From Euglena gracilis (Eukaryota), in contig CP154954.1 of NCBI GenBank assembly GCA_039621445.1, positions 24,750,954-24,814,953 on the forward strand: a stretch of DNA of 64,000 bases, read 5' to 3'. Under the pieces are notes generated by a model. It was not told the origin of the DNA. It did not search any database and saw only the letters and a program-made list of their open reading frames with translations. Below, piece after piece: positions 6,516 to 33,822 of the stretch. The translations under genes and the position numbers were made by a program. How positions within the stretch are numbered: the first letter of the stretch is position 1; each line of letters begins with the position of its first letter.

Positions 6516-6690
6516 TATATATATATATATATATATATCTATATATATATCTATATATATATATCTATATATATATCTATATATATATATCTATATATAT
6601 ATATCTATATATATATCTATATATATATATTATTATATATATATGTACATATATAATTATATATAATTATATATAATACATATATGCTAT
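6516..6690. repeat. (TA)n/TATC compound microsatellite
   Basis: Direct reading. Confidence 0.95.
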
Positions 6691-8049
6691 ATGTAATCAA
6701 TGGACGGACTATGAGCTGGTGATTCTGCATTTCTGATTGAATTCTCAGGTTGCGGTTTCAGGAACTTGGTGAGCTTTTTGAGACCTGCACTGGTGGCTTT
6801 CAAAATCGAAATGCCAAAAAAAGGGAACATGATAATGGTAGGTTGGGTGATCTTCGGTTGGGCTGCTTTTTTTTTTAACCAAACCCGGGGGGAGGGGGGG
6901 TCCAGAGTGTCCTTGAGTGCCTGCCCATGCAGGCACTACCCCCCCCCCGGGGTCGGATTTCGGCCTGTGCCCAGGAACTTTCCTCAGAAAACAGGCCATT
7001 TTCCTTGAAAATAGGCCCTTTTTTAATCCTTCCGGCGCCTTCGGCACCTGCTGGGCATTTTTGGCCAAGTGCCCGACCCCCGGGGGGGGGGGTAAGATTT
7101 GGAGCGCCTTGGACTGCCTGCCCAGGCAGACACTCCCCCCCCGGGGTGGGGTCGGCACCCGACTAAAATACAGCCTGGTAGTTGTGTCTCACCACATCAG
7201 CTTCAGGAGTTTCTGGGCTATCGAAACTTCTGAGAGATAGACAGCAAAAATAGAAGTAAAATGGACAACAAAAGAGCTTCTTGGGTAGATGGCAAAGCCG
7301 GTGCGTCGAGAGGAGGGCAAAATAGAGATGAGTTAGTATTGCCCATGCTGCAGCATATAAACACCCCGGAATAGAAGCCCTCCCCCCGGGTTTTCACCAA
7401 CGTTCTAAATAGTGCCCCCCCCCCCCCCGAAGCCATTGGTTCAATGAGGGTTGGTTTAGTTTACGCTTAGGGGCGACAGAGGGTGCAGAGAAAACACTCT
7501 CCGCCACAACCGCGTCCTCATTGGACGCGTCAGAAGATGCATCGGAAGCATCCAATGCATCCACAAGAGTAACATTTTGCAGCACAATTGATATTGCTGG
7601 AAAAGGACATATGGACCCACGAAGAAATTTATTGGATAATGCTCAGACCCCTTGGATTTAGACCACTTTTCCGAATAGTTCCCCCCCCCCCCGAATAGAA
7701 GCCCCCCCCCGCAGTTTTCAACCAGTTTTCCGAATAGTAGCCCCCGGGGGCTTCTATTCGGCGGGGGGGGGGGGCCAAATGGACCAAAACTCTCCAAAGC
7801 CATTCATCACTAGCCATTTCAGGAGTTTGATTTTGAGCCAAATTCTCCATCATCCATATATCCCCCAAGTCGCTCATTTGTTGTTATTGGGACAACTTTT
7901 GGTAAACCATCCGTCATGGGGGAGGAGTCCAAACCTTGCCCGCGGTGGGTGATATGCGTCCCTTTCAAATAGAAAGCAGGGCAATCGCAGGGGTAAACGG
8001 TAACCACCCCGGATGCGCTTAAGGAAACGGTTTCCGTTGCCGCCGGCCT

Positions 8050-11000
8050 TCAGTTGGCCGGGGACGTAGTGTTCTCCGCGGCGGCGGCGTGGAAGGCGCG
8101 TGGCCTCACCGAGACTGTGGCAGGGGGCGGGCTCTGACTGGCGCGGGGAACGAATGGGGAAATGGTTCACGTCCTGTGGTTGAACAGCACCCCGCCCCAC
8201 CCACTTTGCCCAAGCAGTGGATTCCTGATAGAAAGGACCCACAACCGACAAATGCTCCGACTCCGAGTCGGAAGATTAATCTGGCAAGCCGGGGGCAACC
8301 TTGAAATTGGACATTGTGCAAAGTGGGAAACTCCGTGGGAAAAAGCATTTTCTGTCCATTGCAACTCATAGAGCACCCCCCCCCCTCCAACGGACCAACC
8401 GCCCATCAAAGGAACGCCCATTCTTTTTTTCAGGGGAAGGGGAGGTTACACCACTCTGAATACTAGATTTATGCAGCTGCTGCGCAAGGGCACAACTGGC
8501 CACATATTTTGAGTGTGCAAGCTGTCACACTGTTGTGAAATTGCACAATGTGGCCGTTGTGCATGGTGGGTTTCGAGAGCGGTGCTGGAACAGTGGAAAG
8601 GTCTCAACACCAGAGAGGCCAGCGGGACAAAACACAATACAGGACAGGTGGATGGCTGCCTTCTCGATCAGGTCGTATTGAACTCGGCAAGTATTGTACA
8701 ACCTTCTCCCCAACCCCCTGGCCAAACGAGAAGTTGAAGACAGCTGGTTGGCCGCGGTGGGGCACCGCCACCTCCGGCGCTACCGTCGGCCAGGCGAACA
8801 CCGGGTTGTGTTGCGCCGGGGGCAGGACCGGGTTGGGGGAGGCTGGGCGGGAGGCGACCCCACCACCACCACCCAACCATCAGGCTTCCGAGGGCCCTGA
8901 CCCGCCCTGGCTGTGGGTCCGTTGATCGCCCACGTCTCCAGCCGGGCGGCCATCATGGCGGACGTCACTTTGGTGTCAGGCGAGGCCTCTGGCGCACTCG
9001 TGCCGGGCCCTTGCCAAGCCGTGCTGTTTGCGGTCCCGGTCCTGCTCGGCCAAGGGCTGCGACCACAAACGATACAATTGGTCTGTGGGTGGCCCGGTGC
9101 GGGTCGCGGTCGCATGCGGCCGTGGCCACCGCACGGAACCCGGAAGCTGAGGGAACCCGTCAGGCAAGTAAGTTAGAAAGGTGGTATGGTGGTGCTGGAT
9201 GGCTGGAGGCATGGGGCTGCACTGCACAAAAGTGGGAAAATGGGGAAAAAACAGAGAAACCCAAAATACACGCGGGATGCAGGATCGATGAAAATTCTTT
9301 TTCCGTGAAAATGTCATATCAGTATCAAAAAATCCTTCACGACCGAATGCGACTCTCCAGCAAGGGCATTCAATACAGTGGGGGATGTTGCTCGGGGAAT
9401 TTCTTAAAGACACTGGGGGGGGGGTCAGCCAGCCAGCTGGAAAAAGATGCTGGCTGGAAAAAGGGTGCTGACTGGACTCCCACTCCCTTGGGGGGGCCAA
9501 GGGGGGGGGTACTACCAGCTGCCAGGCTGGACGCAACTACCACCCGAAAGCAGCCAAAAAAGCAAAATCCAGCTGGGTTGGACTTTTTTGGGGTGAAAAA
9601 AACAACCAAAATTGGCCATTTTTGACAACTTTTTTTTTCAAAAGATTCCAGTCCAGCCCAGCTTCGCCAGGCTAAAAAAAATTGTATTTCCGCTCGCCTT
9701 TGCGCGGGGGGGGGGGTCCGCAGCCCAGCTGGGAGCTGCTGGCTGGAAAAAAGGAGCTGGCTGGCTGGACCACCACCTAGGTACCCCTAGGTAGTGGCTG
9801 GCACCCTACCCCCTTGGGGTAGGGTGGGGTTCAGCTTAAGAATTGCCTGATGTTGCTGGCTGGCTCAATATGTGTCATGGCCAAGGTGGCACTGATGGGC
9901 CAAGGTGGCTCGAAATTAAGTTCCGGTTCATCCGTATGCCTTTCAGCCAGGCTGGCGGGCACAGAGGAGAAGACCACTCCCCCCCAGGTTGGTGAGGACG
10001 GGGGCGGAGGTCAACTTCCCGGGTGGGACAGGAGTTGGCCAGACCCCAGGGTTCAATATAAAAGCACTCACTGGGGTCCCACTCACCCAGGGGGGGGGGT
10101 CCGGGTGGGTCAGGCCCCCCAGTCCGGGAGGGCGGGTGGTGGGACACCCCCCACCTAAACCTCGTACACCTCCTTATGTGGAACCCTGCCTGACCCTCCC
10201 GAACAAACTGGTGCTTTTCAACCACGGACACCAAAACAATTCACATGCAGCAATTTTTGGTCCCATTTTTTTTGCCCAAAAAAGGCAAGAATTTGAGGGA
10301 GGCCAAAACAGAGGGAGGGTATGAAGCGAATAGCAATTGGGGGAGGTAGGTGGACCTACCCCCCCCCCCGGGAAACTGTCACCTGACAGGTTGGCCAGTA
10401 CCGGGGACCCTGACAACTTCCTATACTGACAGGTTGGCCGGTAACAGGGACCCTGACAGTTTCCCGGGCGGGACCCTGACAGTTTCCCGGGTAGGGCATT
10501 TCAAGGGAAAATCAATGAAAAATGACCCTGACAGGTTGGCCGGTACCGGGGACCCTGACAGTTTCCCGGGCGGGACCCTGACAGGTTCTCGGGCATGACA
10601 GTTTCCCGGGGGGGGGGTAGGTAATGTCTTCCTTACCAAAGCACTTCACATATGCAACCATGAAGCATTTGCTGTTTGCTATGTGTGGGGGGGGGGCGGT
10701 GAGGGGGGATGCCGGGGGCCTCTCGATGCCGCCCTCCAGCGCAAACAGGTGGCGGCTCTTCTCCAAGTCGTAGCGGGCAGCGATGCCGTTGGAGGGGTGG
10801 CCGCGGCACAGCGGGTCGACCCGCCAATCGTTGTACCGCAGCAGCTTTTTCCCGGCCAGGGATGAGAGAGAGGCTTCTGTGTCCAGCCCATATGGGGGGG
10901 AAGAGAATACCTCCCCGGGAAACTGTCATCTGACAGTTTGGCCGGTTTTCGGGACCCTGACAACTTCCTGTACTGACAAGGGCCAGTACCACACGGACCC

Positions 11001-14000
11001 TGCCAGGTTCTTGGGTTTAACAGTTTCGCGGGGGGGGGGGTAAGAGCTTCAAAAAAAGCAGGAAATGACCGGGGTTTGAAAAAATGGCAGGTGGGGGTGT
11101 CCTCCAACACAGAAACCTTAACTCCAGAAATCCACCTTGTGTTAAACCCTAATCATACCGCCTATGGTGTAGAGTCTGAGGTAGCAATGGGGTTGGGTTT
11201 CTCTTTCCTACCACTCATCTCTATTCAAGTCCGCCAAACTTTCGACTTGTGGGGCCCGCTCAGCAAAAATGCGTGCTCGTGCGCAGTGGTTGTGCCGCCT
11301 GGCACGTACAAACACATGAGCCGAGTTGAAGCTGACCTCAAAAGGCAACACAACTTAGAGCAATATGCGAACAAGTCTGAAATGTGTCCAAAGAAATGCA
11401 AATGATGTCTTCACAAACGGATATGAACCACTGTCATAAATGAAATATTGAAAGAATTGTTCATAATAACAAAGACGGGCCAACTCATTTCCCAAAGCAT
11501 GAGCATGTCTCAAACATGCAAAAAAAAATAGATAATATACATACAAAAAACATACAAAAATGGGTAAAGCCCAGATTCTTCAACAATAAAGACAGTCAGT
11601 GCCAGCTCGCGACCAGCTATCATCATGTTTCCGAGCGAGGTGCATTTCCTGGAATCCACTCCGCTTGTACACGCTGTCGAAATATGGGATGTTGTACGAC
11701 GCCCAGTACCCCCTCTGGTTCACGATGGACGTCATGTCTGCCACTTCCAGCAGACCTGGGGTCTGCTCCGGGGGCAGAGCACCGGAAACCAACACGAGGA
11801 ATGAAATTTCTGCACGATTTTTGTTTCCTGACAGAAAAGACAAATGCAACCAGTGAATGAATGGTGCTTTGAAGACAGCCACCATGGGCGTACTTGAACT
11901 TTCTGGAGTCCAGATTTGTCCCCAGTGTTCAGCATCTGCAGGAGCAGCCAAGCAAATTGCACGCCTCTGCTGTTGAGTGACCTTTACAGAAAAAAGTCCG
12001 GAGAGAAATCAAAGCTGGCTGCCGCGCCAGGGCCCTGGGCACCACGATGAGGCCCCCCTCCTGGAGGCCCACCCCCGGCGCGAACTGTGCCAGGTCCAGC
12101 ACCATCCACTGGTTGTTGTATGTGCCGCTGTTCAACATCGAGAACGGTGGCCGGGGGGGCCCGGGGACTTGGGAGGTTCCGACGGGGGCGTCGCCGTATT
12201 ACGGAGGAGGTCCAGCACAGAGGCTTGAAAATGGGGCTGGCAGAACGAAGCTGGCGGCTGGCTAACCGCCCCCCACCAGTATCCCTGAGACAGTGAGAGC
12301 TGGAATGGGTCAAACCTGACACACAAAATTGAGACTGCAAAAAAAAGCAGAGCAAAAAAGCAGCCAGGCTTTAATCTGTGAAGGCCATCCCATGTAATTT
12401 TAGCCCATTATGGCACCTTCAAAATCGAAAAAAAAGAATTCAGGGACAGAACCCAAACCCAGCGGGGAAAGGACATTCATGCTCCCTGGGTTCACTGCCG
12501 ACCTTATGTCGGGGCGCCGAATGGCTGAGAGCCTTGAAACACTGGCATCGGCGGACACTTTGGAGGACAGGTCCAAGAGGAGGTCACCAGCTGCACCAGA
12601 CAGGTTGAGGATCCGTGGGAGTGGGAGGTTTATACCCCCATCACCCCCCTGGGGAGAAACCCAAGTGTTTCCTAAATCCGGGGACATGTAGTGCATACGG
12701 TCAGAAACGATGGCAATGGGTGGTCAACAGCGCATAAAATGAAAAATAGGGGTCAACCCCCCCCTTTAAGGGGTACCGAATCAGCCCAATCCCGGCCCGT
12801 TAAAGATGGGGATGAGCCAGACCACCCTCAGCCCCCTCCCCACAGGGTCCAACCTGGAGCGGAGCCAGAGGAGGAAAACAATCATGTTATCAGACGTTGC
12901 CCGGACACTGAAAAAAATGGAAAAAAAACGGGGCGGACAAGACAAAAATAAAAGGGGGAACCTTGGAAACGAGGAGGAAAAGGGGGAACCTTGCATGAAG
13001 GTTCCCCGCACGTCCGAGGTGGAGGGAACGGAGTCGAATGGTGGCGCATTGGCGGCCCTTTGGGGACGGAGGGCCGCCCCGGGCAGTTGAGCCCACTGCG
13101 TCGCGGAGCTGGCGAGCACATTGGCGGCGTAGGCCGACAGCAGAGGGTTGCGGAGGCCCCAGAGGGGCAGAGGAGGGGGGGGGGGGGCACAGCTTGTGGC
13201 AGCTGGCGGGGGGGGGGGAGAGAATACGAGAGCCAGGTGTGGTGGCGGTCAAGGGCTGTTCGGGAGGCCCGCCCGGTGGGTGGCTGTCGGCAGCCCTGCC
13301 TGGAAGGGGTAGCCAAACCCCCCCACCGAGGTATTAAATGAGTGGGGGGAGGGGGTCTGGACCCCCCTCCCCCTGTGCAAGAAATCTTTGGGCCTTGAAA
13401 AAAGCCCCAAGACACATTTTTGCACAGTTTTTTTTATTAAAAAAAATCCCCAAAACAGACACCAAAAAATTCAGCTTCTTTGGTGCAAAGTGCATGGAGA
13501 ATTCTTTTAGAGTTCAAGAGGGTGTCCCAGACACCCCCTCGGTCTGAAGAGGGGGAGGGGTCTGCACCCCTCGCCCTCCCCCGCAAACCAACGCGCACTT
13601 AATACCCTGCTCCCCACCAACCACAGCAGTTTCCAGGATTCTCCTTCAGCCCCGGGGGCTGCGTCCTTCCATGCACCATCAAAGGCGGTCATCCTGCACC
13701 AACTCAGGTTCGATATCAGAGCAGGTGGAGGGGGTCAGACCCCCCCCCCACACCTAAACTGCGATGCAGTCAGGGAGACCGAAATGTTTTGCTTCCAAAA
13801 ATCAGCTGGAAATGCCATTTTGGTTTCTTTTTGGGTAAAAAAAAAATTGGCAAGAAAAGCAAAAAAATTCGGCGCAAAGCGGCAGAAGGAAAAACCTGAT
13901 CTTTGGGTAGGGGGTCCCGGGTTCGGTCTGGACCTTGTTGGGTGGGAGGGGGTGGTGCAGAACCCCCCTTGTAGTCCAGGGGAGGGGGGACCCGACCCCC

Positions 14001-17000
14001 TCTACCCTCACCCGGGCCCTCCCTCCTCCTCTCTGGATCATTGTGACAAACCACCCCACCTTCCCTCCTGAAGCCCGGCCTGGACGAAACACTCTGGGCC
14101 GCATCCAGGCGAGGATGGACTTCGGCGTGATGAGGGCGTAGAGGCCCGGGCGGTACATCCCGTTGGTGGTCTCCATCACCGCCAGCCGGCTGTCCAGCAG
14201 GTGTGGGGAGGGGCTGGCCAGGGGGGGGAGGTCCACGTACCAAAGTGCCTCACCCCCCCTCACCCTACACCCTGGGGGACTCGTCTGCAGGTGAGCGATC
14301 GGATGGCAGTGGGGAGGTCGGGCTGCTTTTGAAGACCTCGGGAGGGGGATCCTCCCATCCACCCAACCTCGTGCAGATCCCCCAACACTGGGCTATCTTG
14401 AGGCGTTTTCCAAAACAGTTAAAGTGATTCGTTTGGAGGTGTGGTAGTGGAAACGGCGGCAGCTTTACATGGATTGCGTGGCAGCTTTGCATTCGACTTC
14501 ATCAGCCAAAATGTCTTCACCAAGGCAGGAAGACTTACCAAGACTTACAACCTTACCAAGACAGCCGTCTTTCCTGCTGGAGGGAGGGACTGCTGCCATT
14601 TCCCTGCTGCCATGGCCCACCGCCCTCAGCCGGGCCCTCAGCACCAGTCGTCGGCGGAAGTCAGGTAGCCCGGGCTGGAGGAGAAGGACACCTGCCGCTG
14701 CGTCGCCCCCCGGGCCCAGCTGTCGGAGGGGACGGCGTCCAGGGGGATGGGGAGGTCGGCGGGCACGTTGGCGCCACTGTGGGGGGGGGGGGGGGCAGGG
14801 TTTGATTGAGGACAGGTGCCCCCCGTCCAGGAGGACCCCCCTCCTCTACCATATTAAACGCCGGTGGTAAACAAATATGTGGCGAGCTTCATATCTTTCC
14901 CTCAAAAAAAAAGGATGGAACGTTTGGTTTTGGCGCAACGCAAGGTGTGAAAACGTATCCCCCAAACCCAATGAACACATTTGACAATCTAGACGGTCCG
15001 GCTGTGGAACATTCTTTGGGAATAGGTTGTATGGGAATTTGCATTCAACTTGCGACTGGCAACGACTTGGACGGTCTGGACGCCCGCTGCTCATTGGGCA
15101 TGGGTGTTCACTGGGCTTAGGGGGAGGTACCACGTTTTTTTTGCAAACTCTCAACGGCAATATAATTGATCCAGCTTCCAATGACAGGAGGAGGCGCCGC
15201 CGGGGGCATAATGCTTGAAGATGCGGTTCATGGCGCTGTACTCGTCCCACGTGGTAGGGCCAGGACTCGGCACCCAGAACCATTGTCCACGCTACTGCAG
15301 GGGGGGAACGCAACAAAAAAACCCTCAAAAATGCGACTCAAAAAGAACACAAAAAAAAAACGAAAAAAAACACAAAAAAAGAAACATAAAAAAAAACACA
15401 AAAAAACACATTTTGCATTTTTTCTCCCCCCTGCTCTACTGCCACCAGCACAGACCCCGCCCTGCCCACAGCTCGTGGGGGTAGGGGTCAACCTCCCCTC
15501 TCCACCACAAGTGAATATCAAAAATCATTTGATGTGAAAGCAAAATTTGACACTCAGGGGTCTGACCTGTTGCACACACTGCCCCTGGCTCATTCCCCCC
15601 GCACCGCTCGTGGACCCCCAGGGTGTAGTCAACATGTAGTCAACCCTCAAAGTTGCATCCTCACCTGTTGGGTTCAACCTGCCCCCCCCCTTTCAAGCCA
15701 TTTAGCCAGGCGGCTCGTTCGTTCAGCAGGGGAAGGCGAACCAAGGGGTGGAGACTCCCGAGGGGGGGGTCATACTCCTTTCCCCTTGTGTGCCCAGTAC
15801 TTCCCTCCCAGAATGGCGCCGCCCTCTATCCATTCCTACCCCCTCTCTCCCCCACCTATTTTCCTCGCTCCCACCCCACTCCTCCCGCTCTAATCACGCT
15901 ACCTTTCACTTGCTCTGCGCTCCCTATTACCTTGCCTTCCCCCATCAACCTGTTCTGTGTTCCTCACCCCCATGCCACCTTCCTCCAAGCCACGCCCCCT
16001 CCAGTGCCACGTCCCCCTCCTCCCCTACCCCAATTGATTCACGGCGCCTGCTTCAAGGTTCCCCGTAGGAGGCAAGTCCTCCCTGGGTGGTCCCCCCAAC
16101 CCCTCTGTTGGCACTATTCCCCATTCCAACCAAGCCTTCTTCTGTACCAAACTTACTTGCCTATGGACCGTTTTGGCTTTCTACAGTCTTTGCTTTTATC
16201 TTATTTTTCCCCCTACCAAGACTCACCTCCCACCGGACCCGTCTTTCTCTTTGGCTATTTGCGTCTACCCTCCTGCCCAACCTTACGTCTACCGCCTCCC
16301 GTCCTTTTCCCCCATCGTCCTCACTCAATGTACATTCCTCTGTACCCTGGAGTTCAACCTGCCCTTCACTTTTTTCCCCGGGCCCCGGTCTCTCCCGTCC
16401 ATCGGACCCACTCCGCATCTGTGACCAGCCCCCTCCCCCTTCTCCTTTCGCTCAAATATGCCTTCTTCCTCCCCCATATCACCGCCTCCAAACCCTTCTT
16501 TGGTCTTGCCCAGTGGACTCCCTTCCCCCCCGGTGGATGAATTGACATCATCCCCTTTGCACATTTTCACTTCTTGGACCCCCCTCCCTCTACTCCCCCG
16601 CTCGCTTACACCTCATTGGGCAATAGTCCCAGTTCCTTCTGGAGCGGGACAGACGTTTTTTTGCCCTCCCCACCCATTGCCATTCTCATCCCCGCCTTCT
16701 TTCTTCTGAAGTCAATCCTTTCCGTCTTTATCTCCACCCGCCAGCTCGGGCTCCTCACTCGCCCTATTCCCGCACTTTGTTGGCTGCCCAACGCCTCAAA
16801 AACTCTTGCTACCACGCGTAGATGTGATCTTGGGCCCTTTTTGTTTTCTCATCTTACCCACGCCCCCCTTCCCCTTCCTCTTCTCAGCCCCGCTTCCCCC
16901 CACACCGCCTCGGTCTATGCCCCCTGGTGATTTGTATCTCCTTTTCCCACTGGGTTGCACCTCTGCCCTGGCTCATTCCCCCGCACGCTCAGTGCCCCTC

Positions 17001-20000
17001 GTGTTTGTCCTTCATGTTCCTCTATCTTTACCAGCTCAACTGTTTGGGTTTCCACCTGCCCCCCCCTTTCAGCCATTTCCCCCGATTCCCTTCGTCAGGT
17101 GCCTGGCAGCCATGGGGTGGCGGTGCCTGGGGGTGGCCCCAGAGCAGGTCTTGGCGGTCGGAGGTCAGCCGGATGAGGGCGGAGCAGCGCAGGCTCTTCA
17201 CCGCCTCCCCGCCAAAACCCTGCCCTCCAACCCGCAAAATGGCGTTGGTCGTCGCCCAAAGCACACACCCACCGAGAGAGTCAGCCGGAGAGGGGAAGGG
17301 GCACTTCTTTCGACGCCAAACCCCACCCCACCCCACCACGTTTTTCCAGGGGAAAGCCTTCCCTCGGGGCAGGGGCTTGTTCTTGGTATGGCATATGCGA
17401 CCGCTGGGTCGCTTGGGTTGCGTGTCGCTTGTGCCGGACGGTGCCGTTCACGGCGGGGACCGGTGTCACGGTGATCTCTGGGACCCTGACGCCCATCCGA
17501 CGTCAAAAGTGTGAGGCAACGTATATATACATATATATACATATATATACACACATATGTATGTATGCACACATACAATCATATATATGTATACACACAT
17601 AAACCCCCCCACTTACAAACCCCCGGGGTTTATAGGATCCGGTTTGGTTGGTCGGCCGAAGGGGGGGGGTTTATAGGTGGGGGGGGGGGTTATAAGGTCT
17701 GGAATTGTTGGTGAAATTCCGACCCCCCAAAATGACCATGAAACCCCCCCAAATTGGCAATTATCGGCAAATTTGGTCAAAAATGGCATTTTTGATGATG
17801 GTCGGTCTCAAAAAATTGCCAAAAAAATCAGTTTTTGGGTGGTTTGGTGGCCGGAAAAATCGTCCCCGGCGGCTTTCATTTTTCTTCCCCAGGGGGGGGG
17901 TTATAGGATCCGGTTTGGTTTGGTTGGTCGGCCCGAGGGGGGGTTTATAAGTGCAGGGGGTTTATAAATGGGGGGGGGTTATAAGTGGGGGGTGGTGTTT
18001 ATATACATATATGTGCACACAATAATTAACATATAATATGCAGATGAATGAAAAAAATGAATTTGCAGAATAGACAACTGCGGGAACCTTTTCCGATTAA
18101 ATACTTGATTCTGACAAAAAGAAGTTCGGCTTGTGACTCATTGTTTTGGACTCTCAGCCCCCCCCCCCATCTGGGAACCAGCATCAAATGCCACAAAATG
18201 GGAAAAATTTGCAACAACGGAAAAACAGAGCCCATCAGACGGTCACCGTGGACAGGTCAATTAAGTCACCGTCTGCATTGAGTAGAAAAAGCTCTGCCTC
18301 GGAAAGCCACTCTTGTGGGCTGGCGAAGTCCTGGTAGCCGGCCACCAGCCCGTCGAACTGGGCTGCGGCCAGGCACCCCTCTGCTCCGTCACTCAGCTTC
18401 ATCATCCAATCTGTATGTGTCAGCCGTTCCGTTATGGAAAATGTTGATTTCAACAATACATTTTTAATGTATTATTTATCTTCAGTAATCATTTCAGTAT
18501 TTTGAGTAAAATATAATAATATAATAATTTCAAAATATTTCAACACTGCGCATTATCTCCAACTTCTGCTGCTCGATCTCACACCGGAGGTGGACACCGC
18601 GTGGCTCAGACACCCGCACACAGGAACAGCGGCCAGCCTAGGAGAGCCGGGGGCAGGATGCCGCCGACCACCTGCCAGTACTGCGGCGGTGGGCCGCTCT
18701 GCGACGTTTTGGGCGTCGTCCGGTGGGCGACCTCCTGGCGGATCCACGCCAGGTTTCGGCCACGGAGGGGTGGGGCCCCCGGCCAGCAGGGCGCTCCCTG
18801 AGGGGTGGTCCTTGACGGAAAACAAAAAGAATCCCGGCCTGTATGGACCACCCTGCCAGCCAGGGGATCTCGGTGGACCTTGGGAGGAGGGGGATTTGTG
18901 CCTCTTCTTCCGCCCAATTTTTCCGAAACAGGTCCCAAGCATCATCATCAGCATCATCATCAGCATCTTTTGGGCCGGTTTGGGTTTGTGGTTGTTGTTC
19001 AAAAAACATTCCCTTGGGGTTGTGGAGAATATTTCCTTCAATGAACCCCATTTTGGTCACCAACGCCCTCCAGGCGGCTCACACCCTGGGAGGGAGGGGC
19101 CAATACTTGACGGAAAGCCCCCCCCCCCCCCGCCCCCCCCGGAGGTGGGGTCTGGGGGGTTTCCCGCCAGTTGCTGGGCTGGTTCTGGTTGGCACTCAAC
19201 AACGGAGAAAGAAATGAAATCCAGCGGGGTTGGAATTCTTCGGGAAAAAATATTCAGGGGAAAGGGCTACAACTCCTCCCCTGGTCCCCGGCTGACTCCT
19301 GGAGCAGCTCGAGTTTCGCGTTGCGCGATCAACTCGCTGTGCTGGACTGGGGAGGCATTCACGTTCGGAATCACTGCAACCCGTGCCTCGGGGGCCCGGC
19401 CACCCCTCCCTGGGCGTCGGCAAAAAAGCGGGCCAGCTTGGGGGGGACGACGCGGTTGGGGAAGAACGTCTCCAGCGTGTTCCAGTAGTGCTCGTAGATG
19501 CGCCGGTGTGTCACCGCCCCTTCGGGGACCGGGGGGCCTGGGGTTGTGTGCGCTGCGCGATGGACCAACCACCCAGCTGGTTAATGACAATTTGTGTGTT
19601 TGTACGTATGTGTGTGCCATACGTGTCAGATGTGCGTTGTTACGGGGAGAGTCTGGGCCCAATAAATAAATATTCAACTGCCATTCTTGAACCATGGAAA
19701 CTGAAATGCCACCGTTCAAACCATGGCATTTCTCAAAAACTTCACGTTACCAAATCTGCCACCATTCAGGGGGAGTGGGTTGCTGTTTACCAGCGATTCT
19801 CTTCCTGAGCCTCCCGGGGTGGCGCACCCAGCTGCGAACATGCTCCGGCGGTAGCTTGCGTAGGACGGTTCATGGGGCACCGCTCGGACCCACAGCTCCC
19901 ATCAGAGGTTTTTGTCGACTTCGCTGAGAAATAATCTGGGATTACCCTGGCCCCCTAAATTATCTTCACACAGAACTCTGGTGTGGGATCTGGTGTGGGG

Positions 20001-23000
20001 GATGCCCCATGATGTTCCGCAAGCAAAACTAAACCCAGAAGTGGTCTCCCACACCTGACATTTCGCACTGGAGGCGGCCGACCCCCCCCCCCACTGGTAT
20101 CAGCACCCTGGTGGGAGGTTGCCGCACAGGGCCGTGCCAAACAACTCAGTTTACAAGGCGGAGGCACAACGAAAGAGAGACACACACCCTGCTCCGGCGG
20201 CATCCACTTGTGCAACGCGATGCCCCTGAAATTGCCAACGAAAAGGCCGCCAGTGCACTGTGGGGATTGCCCTGCCCCGATGCTGGGTGGCCCTGGGTTC
20301 TGGAGTGCGAGACACAACTGCCCACCTCGGAGAATGCACACCTGCGCACCCACACCCCCACGGAATGCGCAGGTGCGCACTCTCGTGGATACCCAGCGCT
20401 CCTCCCCCCTCCCCACTACTCTCTGAAAGATTACTCCAAGCACACTAACCACTTGCCAGCGCCCCCTTGTGTGCCCCCCCCCCCCCCCCCGCTTCCAGCA
20501 CAGGACCTCCCCTCCACTCTAACCGTATGGACCACCGTGCCCGCTTCCCACAGCCACCCCCGGGAGCTGCACTTACCGTATAAAACTTCAAGAAAAAGCC
20601 GGGACGGGGAGGAGGTTGAATGCGCACCTGCGCATTCACTGGGCACCACAGAACAGGGGGACAACGGGGCGGCAGGTACAAAGGTTCCACTTGATGTTCG
20701 TCCCCATAAGACAGCGTTACAGTGTTACAGACAGTGTTGCACTCTTTCCATCATCATTATCAGAGTCATTATCCCTTCTCCTCATCTATTTTATTCATGA
20801 TGAAAAAGTCTGTGGAATTGGAGAACAGGTTGCTGGCGTTGGACAAGCTTGCATGCTGCACAACCTTAGATGACTGGGAATGCACTATTCATTTTTGGTG
20901 CTTTTTTGCGCACCTTCACATTCTTTTTCGTCGCCATCACTTTGCAGAGCGGAACACCCGACAGGTGAAACCCGTGGTACCAAATGGGTGTCACTATTTT
21001 TTCAACCCCCATGCTTTCTTTCTGCGTAAACCAACTTTTTCGTTTTGAAAATGGTGGTTTACCACCTCTGCGAACCAGGGAAAGAACCCCATCTTCCGAA
21101 TTCGGTGAGGGTAGAGAGGAGAGAAAAAGACAGAGTGTAGTAGAGAGCAAGCGCAAGGAGGAGAGTGCTCATCAACTGTTGTCCATGCTTGTTTTCCCCT
21201 TTCAGGGAGAACTTGATCCTTGATGGAAAAGCCATTTTCAGAGGGACACATTCATAAACGGGAGAAAGTGAAATTCACAATCATTCCTGGTGGTTTGTGG
21301 TGATTCGTGATTACTCGTGATTATTTTTGAATTTGGGAAATCCCCAAATTTGTGATGGTTCGTGAGTATTTGTGAAAGGGGCAAAAATGCGAAAATATGG
21401 GAAACACATTTCCCCTTGTTGAGGCATGGTTTGGGGCAAAAAACTGGAAAGAAAATATGAAATTCTTGGGGGGTCCCTTGGTCTGTCGGACCCCTTGGCA
21501 TGAGGGGAGAGTGCAGACCCAGCACCTCCAATCGTTCAAAAACGAGCTCCAATTCCATAAACTTGGGGCTGGGGCGTTCTTTTTGTGCTCTTGTGCTTTT
21601 GGGAATCCCCTCGTTCCCAAACTGGGAAATTTGAAAAAGGAAGATTGGCAAAAACTTTGAACAAAGCAAATTTTTCTGACTTTTCGTCAGTGAAATCTGA
21701 TCCGTGGGGCAACAGAAAACCAGCAGGACAATCCTCACTTGTGTTGCCTAATTGTTCCCTTTTCGATACCCCGCCAGGAGGTACTGAGAACTCTTAAACA
21801 GAAGCCTGCCCCAGTGAGCAGGCCAATCCAATTCCATTGGTGTGGCTGGTGACAATTCAAAAAATCCTAAGGAAGAAACTTGTCCAAGATTTTTTTATAA
21901 TTTCTATTATTTTTTTCTCCAAAAAATATGTCTGTGTGTGTCTGGGTGGTAATGCCCCATTTTTCTCCCGATGCCGAGGTGAGAACCACTCACGTGGGTC
22001 AACATTTGCAATGATGACTGTATGGTAGATATTGTAACTCATATTTAACAATGAATGTGATACTTTTTGAACAAAGGTCCGTATATATTCCTTGAGCATT
22101 GGAAATAATCTGCAAATGCCTGGGTTACAGTCGTCCACCCAGATCAACAGAATATGTATGACGACTTTCTGGCCCCTTTTTGACCATTTGCCATTGTCCA
22201 AAGGGAAATAAAATGTGCCACGTTGAAAAAAACTGTTCTCCTCTGGACCCCTGATGAAAAACAGAACCCGCCAGCTGAGTACAAACTGGATGAGCTGGAA
22301 AAAAAAATCTTTTTGATTGTTTCGATCAAAAAATCTCTGGCTCCGACCAGCCAGAGACCTGCAGGCTGTCGTTGAACATGACGCAGGCGGTTGCCTTGGC
22401 CTCGTCGCAGCCACCATAACAGGCAGGCCCACCATTCAAAGGGATGGGGGACTCCGAGACAAGGACAGGGATGGGACTCCCCCCTCCTGTACGGCGCAGT
22501 CCGAGTGAATGAGATTCAGCCCGACATGAAATGCTGGGCCGAAAAAATTTACCCCCCCCCAAATCAATTTCGGGCGCTTTTCGGGCAAAAAAAAAATGCC
22601 AAAAAATGCTCAAGGTTCTGGAAGGGAAATTCGACCTTTTTTAAGGGGGGTTCCCAGGCAGCCCTCCCCCCCCCCCCCGGAGCCCCTGAACCCCCCTTGT
22701 CAGGTGGGTTCAGGGGGGTAGGAGGGGAGTGCTAGCTAGGAGGGGAGTGGGGCACCCCTCCCACCCGGACACCCTCTTTGTATCGAACCCTGAAACTCTC
22801 ACCTCAGCCAAAATACCATTACCCCCCCCCCTAAATGACCCCCCCCCCTAAGTGGCCCTTTGGGGTCCCGGCCGAACTCCCCACTTACCTGTTTAGCAAC
22901 CGGGCCCTTCAACCCTAAGTGACTGTAATGGGGAAAAGAGGTGACGGGTGAATTGGGCGTTCTGTTAAAGATGATCGCTCATTTGCATCGCATGTGAATA

Positions 23001-26000
23001 TGTTGCAAATAACTCTAACTGCTTCGAGGGAACAAAAAGAAGTGGTTTCAGATCAATTGTGTGAAACGAAGGCATCATCTGGTGTCTTTGTTTTTGACTT
23101 CCAGCGTTGCAACTGCCATTTGTGCAAAGAATGGAGGATTATTTTCACGTTGTGTTCGCCCTTGTTGTTCTTTTTAACTCGAATAAATTTGTCGCAACTT
23201 GTACAAATGCGGTCTTCTTTTACTCAGCATCCACGCTCACGGGGATGCTGGAAGTAAGAGGTAACAATAATGGCTTCCAGTGGAGTGCTAGAAATGGCCG
23301 TAGAACAAAGCCGGCAGCGACCTTCCCCTGCAGTGGCAAACGGTGACCTATCCAGAGACCTCCTGCCAGCGGAGGCTGCGCGAGACGAACACCGCCGCCT
23401 CTGTGAACTGCGCCGGCTCTTCCTTCCTTTGAGGCGCCCGGGCCTGATGACGAAAGAAAGAAGTGAGTGCAAATACACTCAGTGTGGTGTTGCCCATTCG
23501 GAGGGGGGGGGGGCTGCTCGATTTCTGCTTCGTGCACAAAGAGGACACAATTTCCCCCATTCTTCCCCCAAATACGCCCAAGACATAACTCAGCGAAACG
23601 AATTTAAATCAGCACTTCCGCAACCATATGATTCGACTGCAAAAAGATAAAGGGACCGAAATCATTACAAAAACCAGTGACTCACTTTCTTCAGAAAACC
23701 AGAGCCTGAAAAAACCAGTCACCCCTCCAGGGGGGACAAAATGATCGCATGACCAATGGCGATGTCAGTCAATGTAAACCCTCCCCCCCCCACTTATAAA
23801 CCCCCCGGGGTTTGTAGGATCCGGTTTGGTTGGTCGGCCGAAGAGGGGGGGGGATTTATAGGTGGGGGGGTCGCTGAGCTTATCCCTTTATGGGTAAGAG
23901 CGAAGCTTACACCCGGCGAAATCCCCCCCCCTCGACCCCCTCCTCCCCCCCCCGGGTCGGGGCCACCAGGAGAACCGACGGATTATCACCATGATCCCGG
24001 CCCCGTTCCCGGAATTTTTTTTTCAGTCGTGAGCGACTGGATTTCTAGTTTCCGAATCACCTGGGTTTGACCCCCAACTCCCCGCCAGGCCCGAGTTATT
24101 CACGCGCGAAGGGGTCCAAACTGGGTAGGATTTACCCGCCCCCCCCTGGATAAGCCCCCCCCCCTTTGGACTCTGCCATTTCGGCCAAAAAATGTCAAAT
24201 TTCAAAAAATCTCCAAAATGAAGCCAAATCAAAGGAAATGTCCGGAGACCTAATTTGAAGCCCTTGGAACGCCCCATCTACTGGTATTTTGATTTCCCCG
24301 CAACTCCCCGGCCCAGCCCGAGATACGGCGTTTTCGGCGCAGATGGCCGTTTTGTGCACTTTTCCCTCTGTTCGACTAAGCCGTTTTCGGGGGGTGGGGG
24401 GTCAAAAAATCGATGTTTTCAAAATTTCTCGAAAATGATGCAAAATCAAAGGAAATGTACAGAGACCTAAATTGAAGCCCTTGGAACGCTCTATCTACTG
24501 GGATTTTGGTTTCCCCGCAACTCCCCGCCCAGCCCGAGATACGGGCGTTTTTTGGCCAATTTAGGCCATCTTAGGCCATTTTGTACACTTTTTCCACTGT
24601 TCGACTTAGCCATTTTCGGCCAAAAAAGTCGAAAAAAATCGAAAAATTTTTTTTTGCCTGAAACGATGTTTTTTTGCCTCCCGGACCCAGAAAAACTGTT
24701 GTTGAGCCGAAAACGAGCGTTTTTCGACCCGCCGGCGCCCCGTTTTGGGCCGCCGACCCATTGACTTTGGGTCAAACCCAATTCAAAAAAGTCGAAAAAA
24801 ATCGAAAAATTTTTTTTTGCCCGAAACGATGTTTTTTGGCCTCCCGGACCCAGAACAACTGTTTTTGAGCCGAAAACGAGCGTTTTTCGACCCGCCGGCG
24901 CCCTGTTTCTGGCACAAAACCGATGGATTTCAGTCAAAAGAGCTCCAAGGAGTGGGCCAGTATGTATGGAGGGGTCAATGAAGGGGTGGGTGTGTGCTTA
25001 TTAAGAGCTCAGCATTATTCAAAACCTGGTTTATAGGATCCGGAATTGTTGGTGAAAATCTGACCCCCCAAAATGACCCCGAAACCCCCCAAATTGGCAG
25101 TTTTTGGCAAATTTGGTCAAAAATGGCATTTTTGATGATGGTCGGTCTCAAAAAATTGCCAAAAAATCAGTTTTTGGGTGGTTTGCAGCCGAAAAAACTG
25201 TCCCTGACGGTTTCCATTTTTCTTCAGCAGGGGGGGTTTATAAGTGGGGGGTGGGGTTTACTTGTTGGAGTCAAGCACACTGAATGGCATCCGGAAAAAA
25301 AAATCTGCTCAGGCCAAGGCCGAACACTGCGTGGAAGGGAGGCGGGGCATCACACCGGTGCGGCGGGCCGCTGCCACCAGCCTTCCGTCAGGATGGCCAC
25401 CACCACCAACGGCCTCAGACCCAACCATCCCCTGTCCCTTTGCCGGTGGGGCATAGAGTGGCCGTGGACCCAGACAGCTGCCGGCGCGACACGGAAAAGA
25501 GCGCAACACAAAAGAGAGGAATAGCCTGCCCACCCCCCAGGCTAACTTTGGACATCTTAGGACGGAACAAGGCTGCGGTGTGCCGGGTGGCGGGACAGCG
25601 GGGGGGGGGGGGGGCCGGGGGGGGCGGGGGCCTGGGTGCGACCACCGCGAGGAGGGGCCACAGTCGGCCGAGGTCCGCGAGGGGCGTGGCGTCGAGGCAC
25701 GCGAGGCGGGGTCGGCCTGGCCCCAGAGTTCGATGCAAGGGTGGGGGGGTTGGGAATCTGTCAAAAATCTGTCAAAAAAATCACGTGCACAGTGCCGGGA
25801 GGAACGTTTCGAGAGGAATGCCGGGTGTCCCCGCGGGCAGGTGTGGTGGTGGTCTGGTGTGATGGTCCGAACCCCAGGGGAGTCCAGGGCTTCCAATTTT
25901 TTACCGACCCCCTCGGGGGGGGGGGAGGGGGTCCGGGCCAAAAACTAGTCAGTCACTCTGAAAAAACCAGTCACCCCCTGGGGGGGGGGGTCGGCCAGTG

Positions 26001-26227
26001 ACTAAGTGATTGTATGGTCCAGGGGGGGGGGGGTCCGGAGGGGCCTCCTCAACCCTGTCACACCCCTTGTCATATCGAACGCTGGCCGGCCCCCACCGGG
26101 CCGCCCGCGGCGGGGGGGCCGGCGACGACGTAGACGGGGTGGCGGGGGCGCTGACGTCCGCGGCGGGGAAGGTGCCGTAGCGGGGGTCGGGCTGCCCCGG
26201 CAGTGGCAGCGCGGCGGCCGGCGCCAT
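8050..26227 (-). CDS. Phospholipase B-like protein (PLBD/LAMA family, Ntn hydrolase), 22 exons, 659 aa, with N-terminal membrane anchor
   Basis: Exons (high to low): 26227-26075, 25729-25638, 25410-25356, 23443-23354, 22415-22343, 19897-19821, 19523-19416, 18755-18655, 18364-18254, 17461-17389, 17207-17133, 15255-15208, 14724-14643, 14202-14100, 13135-13085, 12145-12041, 11769-11611, 11298-11227, 10851-10725, 8977-8913, 8817-8724, 8115-8050. They total 1980 nt with compatible phases. Family motifs appear in order: [37 protein letters not shown], catalytic [106 protein letters not shown]. Confidence 0.92.
10354..10622. mobile_element. MITE-like element (ACCCTGACAG subrepeats); related copy at ~10908-11042
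   Basis: TIR ACCTACCCCCCCCCCCGGGAAACTGTCA / TGACAGTTTCCCGGGGGGGGGGTAGGT. Confidence 0.6.
17601..18000. mobile_element. MITE-like element inserted in TA-rich sequence
   Basis: Ends AAACCCCCCCACTTA.. / ..TAAGTGGGGGG..TTT are inverted. The interior is closely similar to 23777-23870 and 25030-25260. Confidence 0.65.
23777..25260. mobile_element. Second copy of the 17601 MITE family, split by a ~1.15 kb nested insertion
   Basis: Left arm 23777-~23870 and right arm ~25030-25260 match the 17601-18000 element. The insert has internal duplications (24150-24330 vs 24400-24560; 24625-24745 vs 24787-24905). Confidence 0.55.
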
Positions 26228-26782
26228 GCGGGGGCGGCGAGGGGGGCCCCGGTCCTGCAGGGGAGAGGGGTGGGGGCTGGGCCCCACACCCGCGGCAGTG
26301 CCTGCACCCCTGGGCCGGGGCGGGAAGGAGCCGGCCACAAACGGTGCGAGGCGTCGCCAGAACACAGCGTTTCGCGACGACGGGGGAGTGCGGCGGACCA
26401 AAACGCTCGTACGCGTCACCTTCCTGAGGGGGTGCAAATGCGGGAGGAGAGGAGTCAGTCTTCCCGGAGCGCATCCTCACACTGTGGCTCAGGTCACAAT
26501 GTCTGACTGGACGGCCGATTTGGGTTTCGGCAAAATCCGTGAGCCACTCAAGAGAACAAATCAAATTGCCGGGAGGGCTAATGGCTTTTTGGCTTCAATT
26601 TTTTTTGGCTTCAATTCTTCACCTGCATGCAGGTCTGCCTGATGTCAGGGTTTGCACTTGTATAATTGTGGCGACGCTGCATAGAGGTGACGAGCAGCAT
26701 GTGAGGTGCATTGGAGTGTCTCCCGTCACCGGTATGGCTCGGATCCGACGCACAGCCACGGGGAGGGGTCGGCCGGGCGGGG

Positions 26783-30864: not shown

Positions 30865-33822
30865 TTAAAAAAACAGACAGTTTGGTGGTGTCCTTCAGAT
30901 AATCCCTGACAACCACAAAACAAACATTGACGCCTCAGGCAGATAAAGTCGCATGCAGGCTTTTAACGGTGAAAGCAGATTCTAGCCTTCAGATATTGCA
31001 AAATCCAACGACCTCATTCATTTTAATCATCCCCCAGGTTGTTGCTTTCTTTTGTTTCTTTTGCCAAATGCTCAGAACTAATCAACACCCGATCTTGCGG
31101 GGGTTAATGGCCAAGCAATTTCAGCCACCACAGTGCGCGCCTGCAACCAGCGTCCACACACAACAAGCTCATTTATATTATAAAAACCTCAGGGTGTTTA
31201 GAAACTGAGATCTAGCCTCAGAAAAGGCCTCAGAAAACAGTCAGCCAGCAACAAAAAAACATATGTCAAATGAGAGACACCAAAAAATTGGGCTGGAATG
31301 GGTAAAGACCCACATCTTTGAGGAAAATGTTGATCCCTGTAATATCAACCTGTCCATAACACAGCAAAAGAAATGAGAGAAGCTGGGAAATACTTCTGGT
31401 ATGGAGTATGCTTGCCAATGATGATGGGTCGCTTTTGAGCGTCGAACAGAGACTGCGGGGTCACCACCATAGATTCACTTGGAAACACCACCTGGGGGGG
31501 GACAGTTTTCCACGCCCAGCCCACCCCCACCCCCACCCCCACCGTTCTTTTTTTTATATGAAAACTCAGCCACACACGACCCACCCAAAACCCACCTATG
31601 CGGCCCGGCTGGACTGACCCATGGCACGGAGGGGGGGGGGGTCCAATGGCCCCCCCCCCACTCTCAACCCCCCACGACACACAATCCAGTGTTAAATGAA
31701 TCTATGGTCACCACCGAAACAAACAAACTATCGTTATCCAGGAATCCAATCACCTGCAGACCGGCAAGGAATATTAGCGTTGAACTCCAAAATGCATCTG
31801 TTGAATGAGTCTCTGCCTTTCTTGAAAGGTGATATGCAAAAAAAAGCTGTGTGTATGCATATTTATGCACGTATGAATGCTGTGTGTACTATATAATACA
31901 TGCACACACATTCTCATGATACACTGATAAATGTGTTTTGTCATACCTGCCCCCCAAGCCCAATGAACACCAAATGAGAATCCAGATGCGCTCTGGACGG
32001 GGGACGTTCATTGGTCATAAATTGCTAGGGCATGTGTATTGCTGTAAAAAAAAAATGACAAACTAGACGGTTCGGACCCCCTGTTCATTGGGCCAGGGGG
32101 TTCATTGGACATTAGGGGGGGAGGTTACCCCTTGAGTGTTGTTAGAAAGTCGCCCGGGGGTTCAACATGAAGGGTCAGCCTCAAGCAAGGAAAACCCAGC
32201 ATCAACAGTATGGCAAAATGGTTGAGGGTTTTTCAGAGCCAAAAAAAATTCCTAACCTTTGAGAAATTCCAGCGAAATAATGGAGAGAAGAAGGGAGATA
32301 ATGAAGAGCAATATGACGCAAATCAAACCTCAGCGTCGGTGTGGGTGTCGGCAAAGAACCGGTTGCAGGCTCTTTAGAGCTGGGATCTGCTCCTCCTCAG
32401 GGTTCAACCAAAAAGAGATTGGTGGGGGGTCGGAGTCCCCTCCGGTGAATAAGGGGGGGGGGGTTCCTCAACGAGAACAGTGGCGCGTCTAGCAAGAAGC
32501 ACAAGACCAAAAAAAGTTACCCCCCAAAATCGACCCATGGTGCCATTTCAGACACTTTCACTTTGCCAAAATCAAAAAAATTCGCCGTAAAGCACCAGGA
32601 AAAAAATTGACCTGTTTGTAGGGTTCAGATACCCCTTGGGGGTGCGACCGAGGCCCCCTTGGCAGGGGAGGGGGTGGTAACCCCCCCCCCTGCAGTCAAG
32701 GAGATACTTCCCGCCTAAAGCCACAACACTCTCATTATATCGAACCCTGCTCCTCCCATTCTCATATCCTTCCAATCGTCTTCGTTTGTCAATCGTTCTG
32801 GAGTGGTCTTCCACAATACAATTACTAATTTCCAGCGTCCTTTTTTAAAAAAGGTGCCTGATCGAGACCACTGTTGTCGGTCGTAGCCTTTTCCGCGACC
32901 ACAGATCCCTCCTGTTGGGCAACATGATACCTGAGTTGTTCTCACCCTCACCGTCAAACTCCAAATCCCCCCTCACTCTGAACCATCCATCCTTAAAAGA
33001 CGAAATCACGATGCAGAAGCGCTCACCAAGACACCGGTGTATGTCTTTCTCTGAAAAGGGTGTCACTGCAGGGTAGTTGGGCTCCATGCCTGGAAAGGTC
33101 GCAGGGTCCTCCGGTAACTGCTCGTAGATCACCTTGGGGAAGGGGTAGAGGGGGGCAGGCTTCAGCCCCAAGGCTGGGCGGGGGGATCTGCAAAGCATGA
33201 CGAGGGATATCCGAAATGAATGTGATTCTTTCATTTCATACACACAGACACACAGACACACACAACACAACAACACACAGACACACACAACACACACATA
33301 CAAACGAATACACACACACACAAATTCACACACACAAATTCACAGACAAATAGACACACAATCAAATACACACACAAACACCCACACAAAAAACTCAGAG
33401 GGGAGTTCCCGAGGCCTGGGCGGCAGCCATGGCATTCCCGAAGCGGTGCTCCTCCTGGCGCTCGTCATCCAGCACCAGGATGAAGTCGCCGTACTCCTTC
33501 GGCCAAAAGATGCGCATGCTGAGGCAAAAGGACGGGCAAAGCACCGGGTCAATGCTACAGAACATGGGATGCATTGGGGCACTGGTGTATGCAGGCTTCT
33601 TTTTAAGACCCCCGGGGGGGGGGGAGGGGGGGGGTCCCCCCCCACCCACCAAGGGTGGCGCGGGACCCCCCCCCCCGGGGTTTGGGTTTGGGTTTGCTTT
33701 GCCCTGCTGACGCGCAGTGCCCACGGTCAGCAGACCCAGCGTGAGTGCCAGGCCAGCTTCCGTGGGGCACACCCAGGGCCCGGGCACACTTGAACACCAG
33801 AGCAGGAAACTGTGACATCCAG
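26783..33822 (-). CDS. Uncharacterised GT-A-fold glycosyltransferase-like protein (DxD-type motif); 5' exons lie beyond the satellite
   Basis: Spliced reading: LDVTVSCSGVQV (33822-33786); SWALRV (33725-33708); ICLSMRIFWPKEYGDFILVLDDERQEEHRFGNAMAA (33528-33422); LYPFPKVIYEQ (~33150-33090); RGKGYDRQQWS (~32912-32864); QLFFAYHLSRK (~31848-31811); VIGFLDNDSLFVSVV (~31754-31710); TPQSLFDAQKRPIIIG (~31462-31416); ERWALATRTALCKPQVADFMFTFPIHVK (~30475-30388); RTTF...YGEFNIILNYAWYHERDE (29230-29066); YDWHIQ...GY (28771-28630); then exons ~27944-27864, ~27629-27455, ~27246-27140 and ~26910-26783 (stop). The fold assignment is inferred from GYDRQQ plus hydrophobic strand-D-x-D. Confidence 0.7.
29504..29744. 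mobile_element. Short element with telomere-repeat-like TIRs
   Basis: Perfect 17-bp inverted ends GGGATAGGGTTAGGGTT / AACCCTAACCCTATCCC, inside the GT-AG intron 30387-29231. Confidence 0.55.
30825..30862. repeat. (TG)n microsatellite
   Basis: Direct reading. Confidence 0.95.

Follow-up and report, generated by a model that had tools for sequence, protein, structure and literature searches.

An intact phospholipase B-like gene of Euglena gracilis with one conventional and twenty nonconventional introns

Introduction

What marks the two ends of an intron in a gene whose introns nearly all lack GT-AG borders? The question is raised by a phospholipase B-like gene on the minus strand of a 64,000-nt stretch of the Euglena gracilis genome (the window: GenBank assembly GCA_039621445.1, contig CP154954.1, positions 24,750,954 to 24,814,953 of the forward strand; all coordinates below count from its first letter). 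The gene occupies 26227-8050, is intact, comprises 22 exons and 21 introns, and encodes a product of 664 amino acids (PF04916). An earlier note, made from the sequence alone, had described about 18 of these introns as lacking GT-AG ends and as being defined by a stem between their two termini, and had assigned them to the nonconventional introns of euglenids. Here, we examine the borders, the terminal pairing and the likely mode of recognition of all 21 introns. Twenty of them almost certainly belong to the known euglenid nonconventional class.

This class is well described. Pairing between intron positions +4, +5, +6 and -8, -7, -6, mostly CAG with CTG, was reported in 2016 as its most conserved element (PMC4770533), and the same positions are named as the most conserved elements in PMC11282704. 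An earlier count of 8.5% non-conventional introns among 271 (PMC6366073) was superseded by later genome-wide work, which found 16,151 nonconventional introns among 28,337 in E. gracilis (57%), with their terminal pairing energies (PMC11170887), and a share of 71.8% in E. agilis, that of E. gracilis being comparable (PMC12501133, published in 2025). Knock-in genetics in the latter study led to a code, 5'-N3CDG-/-CH'GN5-6|R, that covers 61.2% of the E. agilis nonconventional introns and leaves 38.8% outside. Single substitutions in CAG or CTG abolished splicing there, and among compensated variants of the middle position CTG-CAG alone was spliced (PMC12501133). Excision products are reported to be full-length circles, and removal to occur late, after that of conventional introns (PMC6221363, abstract; PMC11282704). 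Diplonemids, the sister lineage, are said to have nonconventional introns too (PMC6221363).

Results

The gene and its product

The Pfam family Phospholip_B was matched by two minus-strand reading frames inside the gene span. Querying with one exon returned P0001 (source name EG_transcript_4564), a transcriptome-derived E. gracilis protein of 664 amino acids that is 100% identical to the query across that exon. When exact words of this protein were mapped onto the window, they fell into 22 collinear blocks on the minus strand, from 26227 to 8053. The resulting spliced model runs from an ATG at 26227 to a TGA at 8052-8050. Its exons sum to 1995 nt including the stop codon, rather than the 1980 nt first proposed, and its introns account for 16183 of 18178 nt. 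The 664-residue translation is identical to P0001 at 658 positions, and this comparison confirms an intact gene with 21 introns, as had been claimed. The six differences (Y172C, V212A, L214I, Q602R, A623T and G663A) may mean that P0001 comes from a different allele, a different strain or a close paralogue.

Cys314, encoded by exon 11, is presumably the nucleophile, the cysteine with which the processed chain of N-terminal nucleophile (Ntn) hydrolases begins. P0001 covers profile positions 1-486 of 487 of PF04916 (E = 3.8e-152), and from Cys314 on it aligns with the solved PLBD1 chain 4bwc_B, a processed chain, starting at residue 1 of the latter (E = 4.1e-72). We consider the gene intact because the family profile is covered nearly end to end and because the stretch from Cys314 aligns with the solved chain. 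Exons have a G+C content of 67% and introns of 53%. The locus is thus very probably an ordinary, intact nuclear gene of E. gracilis, or of a very close strain or allele, which encodes a phospholipase B-like Ntn hydrolase and carries one conventional intron (intron 3) and 20 nonconventional introns of 95-2445 nt.

Borders fixed by the protein

For every intron, we enumerated all combinations of donor and acceptor whose join yields the transcript protein. Exact solutions, one to nine per intron, were found for 19 of the 21 introns, and introns 6 and 7 were solved by allowing one or two residue differences. Across all protein-compatible junctions, GT-AG was available only at intron 3, GC-AG only at intron 21, and AT-AC at none. 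Accordingly, 20 of the 21 introns cannot be GT-AG, and 19 have no canonical borders if the GC-AG form of intron 21 is counted as canonical. The earlier note was therefore right that many introns lack GT-AG ends, and its figure of about 18 coincides instead with the number of introns whose termini pair in register (see below). Intron 3 (23444-25355, 1912 nt) is the only one that combines the conventional U2-type features, namely GT/GC-AG borders and a pyrimidine tract, with no need for terminal pairing; its 3' end is pyrimidine-rich, and its end-to-end duplex is the weakest in the gene (-5.1 kcal/mol). The borders previously put forward for five example introns (2, 5, 14, 16 and 20) were recovered exactly, with junctions compatible with the protein. 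The start of intron 1, previously placed at 26074, had to be moved: it lies between 26093 and 26085 depending on the slide, and 26087 fits the stem.

Could these introns nevertheless be GT-AG introns whose borders were distorted by a paralogous protein or a mis-assembled transcript? Such a mapping artefact would be in keeping with the six residues that differ between the genome and transcript proteins, and with the presence, within +-30 nt of the borders of all 21 introns, of frame-keeping and stop-free GT/GC-AG pairs. Frame alone is insufficient to dismiss these pairs. Using them alters the protein, however, and they are excluded by the transcript-derived protein together with the homologue alignments. 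The claim that conserved motifs join in frame only at non-canonical borders hence holds at the level of the protein but not at that of the reading frame. The exhaustive enumeration left no GT-AG solution for 20 introns. Moreover, the joins of introns 4-21 (18 of the 21) fall within conserved stretches that show no gap at the junction when P0001 is aligned with seven PLBD homologues of distant eukaryotes, picked from 122 proteins and including a 69%-identical protein of another transcriptome and mammalian PLBD1, and eleven joins are crossed by the alignment with the solved PLBD1 structure. An artefact would also not create the fixed spacing of 3 and 5 nt, the intron-specific stems and the exon purine described below. 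We therefore regard it as very improbable. The transcript-derived P0001 runs across all 21 joins, which at the protein level shows that the introns are removed precisely from the mature mRNA.

At the nucleotide level, direct repeats of 1-6 nt are present at the junctions of 17 of the 21 introns, the exceptions being introns 7, 8, 11 and 13. After 19 of the 20 nonconventional introns, the downstream exon begins with a purine (P = 1.3e-5, with a purine fraction of 0.49 in the coding sequence), intron 4 being the exception; this base played no part in the choice of slide. Intron position +1 is likewise a purine in 18 of the 20.

Short direct repeats at the junctions, combined with terminal inverted repeats, are reminiscent of excised DNA elements, and one could imagine that the introns are removed from the DNA, in the manner of ciliate internal eliminated sequences, and that the mRNA is copied from a rearranged gene. 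Studies of other loci speak against this: pre-mRNA intermediates that retain nonconventional introns have been sequenced (PMC6221363), and knocked-in introns appeared in genomic PCR and were missing from the cDNA of the same strains (PMC12501133). DNA-level removal is thus exceedingly improbable here.

The combination of a terminal inverted repeat and a short direct repeat at the junctions is also common to introners and elements resembling miniature inverted-repeat transposable elements (MITEs). Introners elsewhere are excised by the spliceosome. A MITE-like origin of nonconventional introns has been proposed (PMC12501133, PMC11282704). Searching the 21 introns against the window with blastn recovered internal repeat pieces only and no full-length intron copy, and the idea that whole introns are copies of a mobile element was rejected on this ground. 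Among the repeat pieces, introns 3 and 9 share two (25028-25236 with 17687-17898, 212 bp, 88%; 23785-23870 with 17604-17685, 86 bp, 92%), intron 3 contains internal duplications (125 bp, 96%), and a piece of about 100 bp (83%) is common to introns 18 and 19.

Intron ends pair in a fixed register

With a 5' spacer of 3 nt and a 3' spacer of 5 or 6 nt, positions +4 to +6 pair with -8 to -6 through Watson-Crick pairs only in 15 of the 20 nonconventional introns, and three more (introns 4, 8 and 18) pair in register with one G-U, giving 18 of 20 in total. The triplets are CAG/CTG in nine of the 20. The earlier note had described this pairing as usual and had listed four other, covarying triplet pairs, all of which we found, in introns 9 (CAC/GTG), 13 (GAG/CTC), 6 (CCG/CGG) and 10 (CAA/TTG).

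To compare this register with others, we scanned 130 cells (5' spacer 0-9 by 3' spacer 0-12), granting each cell equal slide freedom. The maximum was the cell with spacers of 3 and 5 nt, in which 14 of the 21 introns pair by Watson-Crick pairs and 18 when G-U is included, compared with a background mean of 2.9 and a background maximum of 10. The helices also extend inward. Summed over introns, helix length from +4 inward was 103, against 66.5 +- 6.3 when 3' ends were permuted among introns, and none of 20000 permutations reached 103, even though permuted pairs had more slide combinations than real ones. We also carried out the check suggested in the earlier note, in which the terminal 25 nt of each intron are folded together and covariation is scored. 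The mean end-to-end duplex was -21.7 kcal/mol when both ends came from one intron and -15.1 kcal/mol when they came from different introns, with none of 20000 permutations as low. Using 10 nt per end, 13 of 20000 permutations were as low. In the format of PMC11170887 (10 nt, U7, 10 nt), terminal pairing energy was non-zero in all 20 nonconventional introns and ranged from -0.8 to -12.7 kcal/mol. The terminal stems are intron-specific.

As for covariation, 19, 20 and 18 of the 20 introns are paired at the three positions, with four pair types at each, and 91 of 100 cells are paired over the first five pairs; a slide of the partner by 1-4 columns lowers this to 33-54. Because we picked, for each intron, the slide that fits its stem, these per-column counts are inflated. 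The register scan does not depend on this choice and is the fair control.

The scan revealed a second enriched register, with spacers of 5 and 1 nt (+6 to +8 with -4 to -2), in 10 of all 21 introns and in six of the 10 introns that fall outside the published code. It arises because a run of G after the triplet faces the C-rich 3' spacer, in which 56 of 100 bases are C. This second helix would compete with the main one, and may reflect base composition or a competing fold.

Half of the introns fall outside the published code

The published code (N3-CDG...CH'G-N5-6|purine) fully describes 10 of the 20 nonconventional introns. Seven of these bear CAG/CTG: intron 1 (25719-26087, 369 nt), with N5 and a 6-nt direct repeat at its junctions; intron 2 (25411-25637, 227 nt), with an in-register helix of 7 bp; intron 5 (19898-22342, 2445 nt), with a 5-nt direct repeat; intron 11 (15256-17132, 1877 nt), which is not slidable; and introns 14 (13136-14099, 964 nt), 16 (11770-12040, 271 nt) and 20 (8818-8912, 95 nt). 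Intron 15 (12146-13084, 939 nt) matches with CGG/CCG and a 3' spacer of 6 nt, and intron 17 (11294-11608, 315 nt, helix 7 bp) with CTG/CAG, the swapped form that is spliceable in the published assay. Lastly, intron 21 (8116-8723, 608 nt) carries CAG/CTG and an 8-bp helix, and a one-base slide (8722-8115) turns its borders into GC-AG; it is a hybrid of an already described kind.

The remaining 10 introns comprise eight with other triplets in register, one with a mismatch and one without a stem, and the purine of the code follows 19 of the 20. Half of the nonconventional introns of this gene thus lie outside the strict code, compared with 38.8% genome-wide in E. agilis (PMC12501133). TAG/CTG, in which the first pair is G-U, occurs in both intron 4 (22419-23353, 935 nt) and intron 18 (10852-11226, 375 nt); intron 4 departs from the code twice, the next exon starting with T. 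Intron 6 (19524-19820, 297 nt) has CCG/CGG and a 5-bp in-register helix, intron 8 (18364-18653, 290 nt) has CCG/TGG with one G-U, and intron 10 (17208-17382, 175 nt) has CAA/TTG. Intron 9 (17462-18253, 792 nt) pairs CAC with GTG within an 8-bp helix and begins with GT at its 5' end only, which gives it an "intermediate/nonconventional" look. Intron 13 (14203-14642, 440 nt) pairs GAG with CTC in a 5-bp helix and has a single possible junction, without slide, and intron 19 (8978-10724, 1747 nt) pairs AGG with CCT, also in a 5-bp helix.

All eight of these introns are absent from the transcript-derived protein. The register with spacers of 3 and 5 nt was the maximum for the code-failing subset as well, with eight of 10 introns compared with a background mean of 2.1, and a helix of 4 bp was present in seven of the 10. 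We asked whether longer stems compensate for non-code triplets and rejected this idea: the mean in-register helix is 5.6 bp in code introns and 4.3 bp in the others. As eight of the 10 code-failing introns keep the register with their outer positions compensated, there is a hint that geometry can replace triplet identity, and this hint is the one point at which the gene adds to published knowledge. In the main text of PMC12501133, compensated variants of the outer positions are not described. We tentatively suggest, as a reading that is possible but still somewhat doubtful, that recognition is set mainly by the geometry of the helix (3 nt before it, 5-6 nt and a purine after it) and not by the C..G/C..G identity.

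The earlier note held that structure rather than sequence is conserved. Published genetics bears this out only in part. Single changes in CAG or CTG abolished splicing, and among the compensated variants of the middle position CTG-CAG alone was spliced (PMC12501133), so the sequence also counts, in the assayed intron at any rate.

Two introns depart from the register itself. Intron 7 (18756-19415, 660 nt, not slidable) carries CAG/GTG with a G-G mismatch at the third pair, yet no other terminal duplex in the gene is as strong as that of its long stem (-42.6 kcal/mol). Intron 12 (14758-15207, 450 nt), which is not GT-AG, is the outlier, having no in-register terminal stem. Approximately 14 C followed by CAG form an element resembling a conventional acceptor (region 14778-14800) 20 nt upstream of the acceptor used, and no combination that uses this acceptor reproduces the conserved protein. 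Several alternatives were tried for intron 12 and rejected. Other slides, or 3' spacers of up to 9 nt, gave no in-register stem; with a GC-AG pair 7 and 19 nt upstream, other residues would stand in place of the conserved KHY and four amino acids would be added; and a nested GT-AG core would leave 41 nt and break the frame.

Exons and surroundings of the gene

Exon 1 (26088-26227, 140 nt) contains the start codon. The region upstream of it (26228-26430) is a G+C-rich leader in which the frame remains open for about 85 codons. The leader ends in a C-rich tract and an AG, some 30 nt from the ATG, and this could be a spliced-leader acceptor. Exons 2 (25638-25718, 81 nt), 3 (25356-25410, 55 nt), 4 (23354-23443, 90 nt) and 5 (22343-22418, 76 nt) are followed by exon 6 (19821-19897, 77 nt), which bears Y172C relative to the transcript. 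Exon 7 (19416-19523, 108 nt) precedes exon 8 (18654-18755, 102 nt), with V212A and L214I, and then come exons 9 (18254-18363, 110 nt) and 10 (17383-17461, 79 nt). The Cys314 motif lies in exon 11 (17133-17207, 75 nt). It is followed by exons 12 (15208-15255, 48 nt), 13 (14643-14757, 115 nt), 14 (14100-14202, 103 nt), 15 (13085-13135, 51 nt), 16 (12041-12145, 105 nt), 17 (11609-11769, 161 nt), 18 (11227-11293, 67 nt) and 19 (10725-10851, 127 nt). The last three exons each carry one difference from the transcript: Q602R in exon 20 (8913-8977, 65 nt), A623T in exon 21 (8724-8817, 94 nt) and G663A in exon 22 (8050-8115, 66 nt including the TGA stop).

Outside the gene, Pfam assigned no family to ten long open reading frames (ORFs) in the same window, and Rfam at gathering thresholds gave no match in the window. 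At 33892-41425 lies a 7.5-kb satellite with a 47-bp unit (about 22 and 136 copies, 90-96% matches), broken by a C-run of about 100 nt at 34917-35022; the strong AT skew of the 34-42 kb region is due to this satellite. A further 10 kb (42000-52000) have a GC skew of +0.24 to +0.35 and include a 32-bp array (51304-51885), a 57-bp repeat (46531-46644) and ORF peptides that recur at about 48727, 49489 and 50108. Two simple repeats occur at 6516-6692 and 33240-33388: one TA-rich array and one run of AC dinucleotides.

Discussion

What, then, marks the ends of these introns? The answer is the one already given for the nonconventional introns of euglenids, both for those of tubA, tubB, gapC and hsp90 and for the genome-wide sets of E. 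agilis and E. gracilis. The introns of this gene show the same variable non-GT-AG borders, the same pairing of +4, +5, +6 with -8, -7, -6, mostly as CAG/CTG, extended into a longer stem, the same direct repeats at the junctions, and purines in the same two places, intron +1 and the first base of the next exon. They also coexist with a conventional intron in one gene, as in the published cases. We found no categorical difference, and the class assignment made in the earlier note stands.

The gene is richer in nonconventional introns, with 20 of 21, than the published averages of 57% (PMC11170887) and 71.8% (PMC12501133). If introns were independent, at least 20 of 21 would be nonconventional with a probability of 0.009 at a rate of 0.718 and of 0.00013 at a rate of 0.57. 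Given tens of thousands of genes, and intron types that may cluster by gene, we take this as a mild enrichment rather than an anomaly.

Several observations weigh against the reading of these introns as one class, defined by a terminal helix and excised by a dedicated pathway, in addition to the inflation of the per-column counts noted above. All junctions rest on the protein of one assembled transcript and are fixed only within one to nine slide positions; six of 664 residues differ between genome and P0001, so the transcript perhaps derives from another allele, strain or paralogue. The published code is matched by only 10 of 20 introns. Introns 4 and 18 have TAG at +4 to +6, and in PMC12501133 the test intron was no longer spliced once it carried this change. 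The triplet of intron 7 is mismatched, and intron 12 is without any in-register stem. Finally, the sequence evidence presented here is silent on enzymes.

We propose the following course of events. The intron ends would first pair in the pre-mRNA, beginning with +4 and -6 and continuing inward for 3-8 bp or more; the complementarity is visible in the sequence, and from it we infer the RNA fold. The helix would then serve as a ruler, such that the upstream exon is freed 3 nt before it and the purine-led downstream exon 5 or 6 nt after it. This geometry is seen in 18-19 of the 20 introns, and helix and spacers are genetically required in the published assay (PMC12501133). The exons would next be joined and the intron released as a full-length circle, the conventional intron having been removed earlier, as suggested by PMC6221363, PMC11282704 and PMC12501133. 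Cutting and joining would be carried out by factors other than those of U1/U2AF-guided recognition, in the simplest case by a structure-measuring endonuclease and an RNA ligase. A cut-and-ligate pathway distinct from U1/U2AF-guided spliceosomal recognition is, in our judgement, somewhat favoured. The earlier note called the excision machinery unidentified, in agreement with the Discussion of PMC12501133, which describes the trans-acting factors as unknown, and our literature search found no paper that identifies it.

An alternative is that the same class of introns is excised by a dedicated or modified spliceosome, the stem merely bringing the ends together, as in other lineages whose introns are mostly not GT-AG. 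PMC11170887 regards spliceosome-dependent and spliceosome-independent removal as both possible and in need of experiment, and PMC11282704 leaves room for "a nonconventional, additional spliceosome". In our gene, intron 21 admits a GC-AG reading and intron 9 begins with GT. Intron 21, however, is alone among the 20 in having both canonical borders. Excision is reported to yield full-length circles and no lariats (PMC11282704), and the elements found to be genetically required are the helix and its fixed spacers, with no 5' splice-site, branch or 3' splice-site motifs among them (PMC12501133). We therefore consider a special spliceosome rather unlikely.

In the tRNA bulge-helix-bulge introns of archaea and eukaryotes, and in the splicing of HAC1/XBP1 by IRE1 and RtcB, RNA structure, and not the sequence of the borders, sets the cuts, and the intron can circularize. 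The pathway favoured above, by an endonuclease and a ligase, would resemble such structure-guided splicing in outline only. We know of no enzyme that links nonconventional introns to tRNA-type or IRE1-RtcB splicing. The bulge-helix-bulge geometry is absent here, where spacers of 3 and 5-6 nt flank a helix of varying length, and the conformation of nonconventional introns has been described as unlike that of tRNA or self-splicing introns (PMC6221363).

The finding is correct yet ordinary for Euglena, and carries little weight as a discovery: the class, its pairing positions, its dominance in Euglena (57-72% of introns) and its functional code are all in print, in line with the earlier note's caveat that the class is not new. 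Its use is practical. The gene offers 20 natural nonconventional introns in a compact set checked against homologues, and half of them break the published code; most of these keep its geometry. Together with the hybrid intron 21 and the stemless intron 12, beside a single conventional intron, they form a convenient natural test panel, suited to the existing knock-in assay and to a read-level study of removal order and circle formation. If recognition were indeed set mainly by geometry, a relaxed rule would account for a large part of the nonconventional introns, 38.8% in all, that the code leaves out, and the stemless intron 12 would mark a further, unexplained route.

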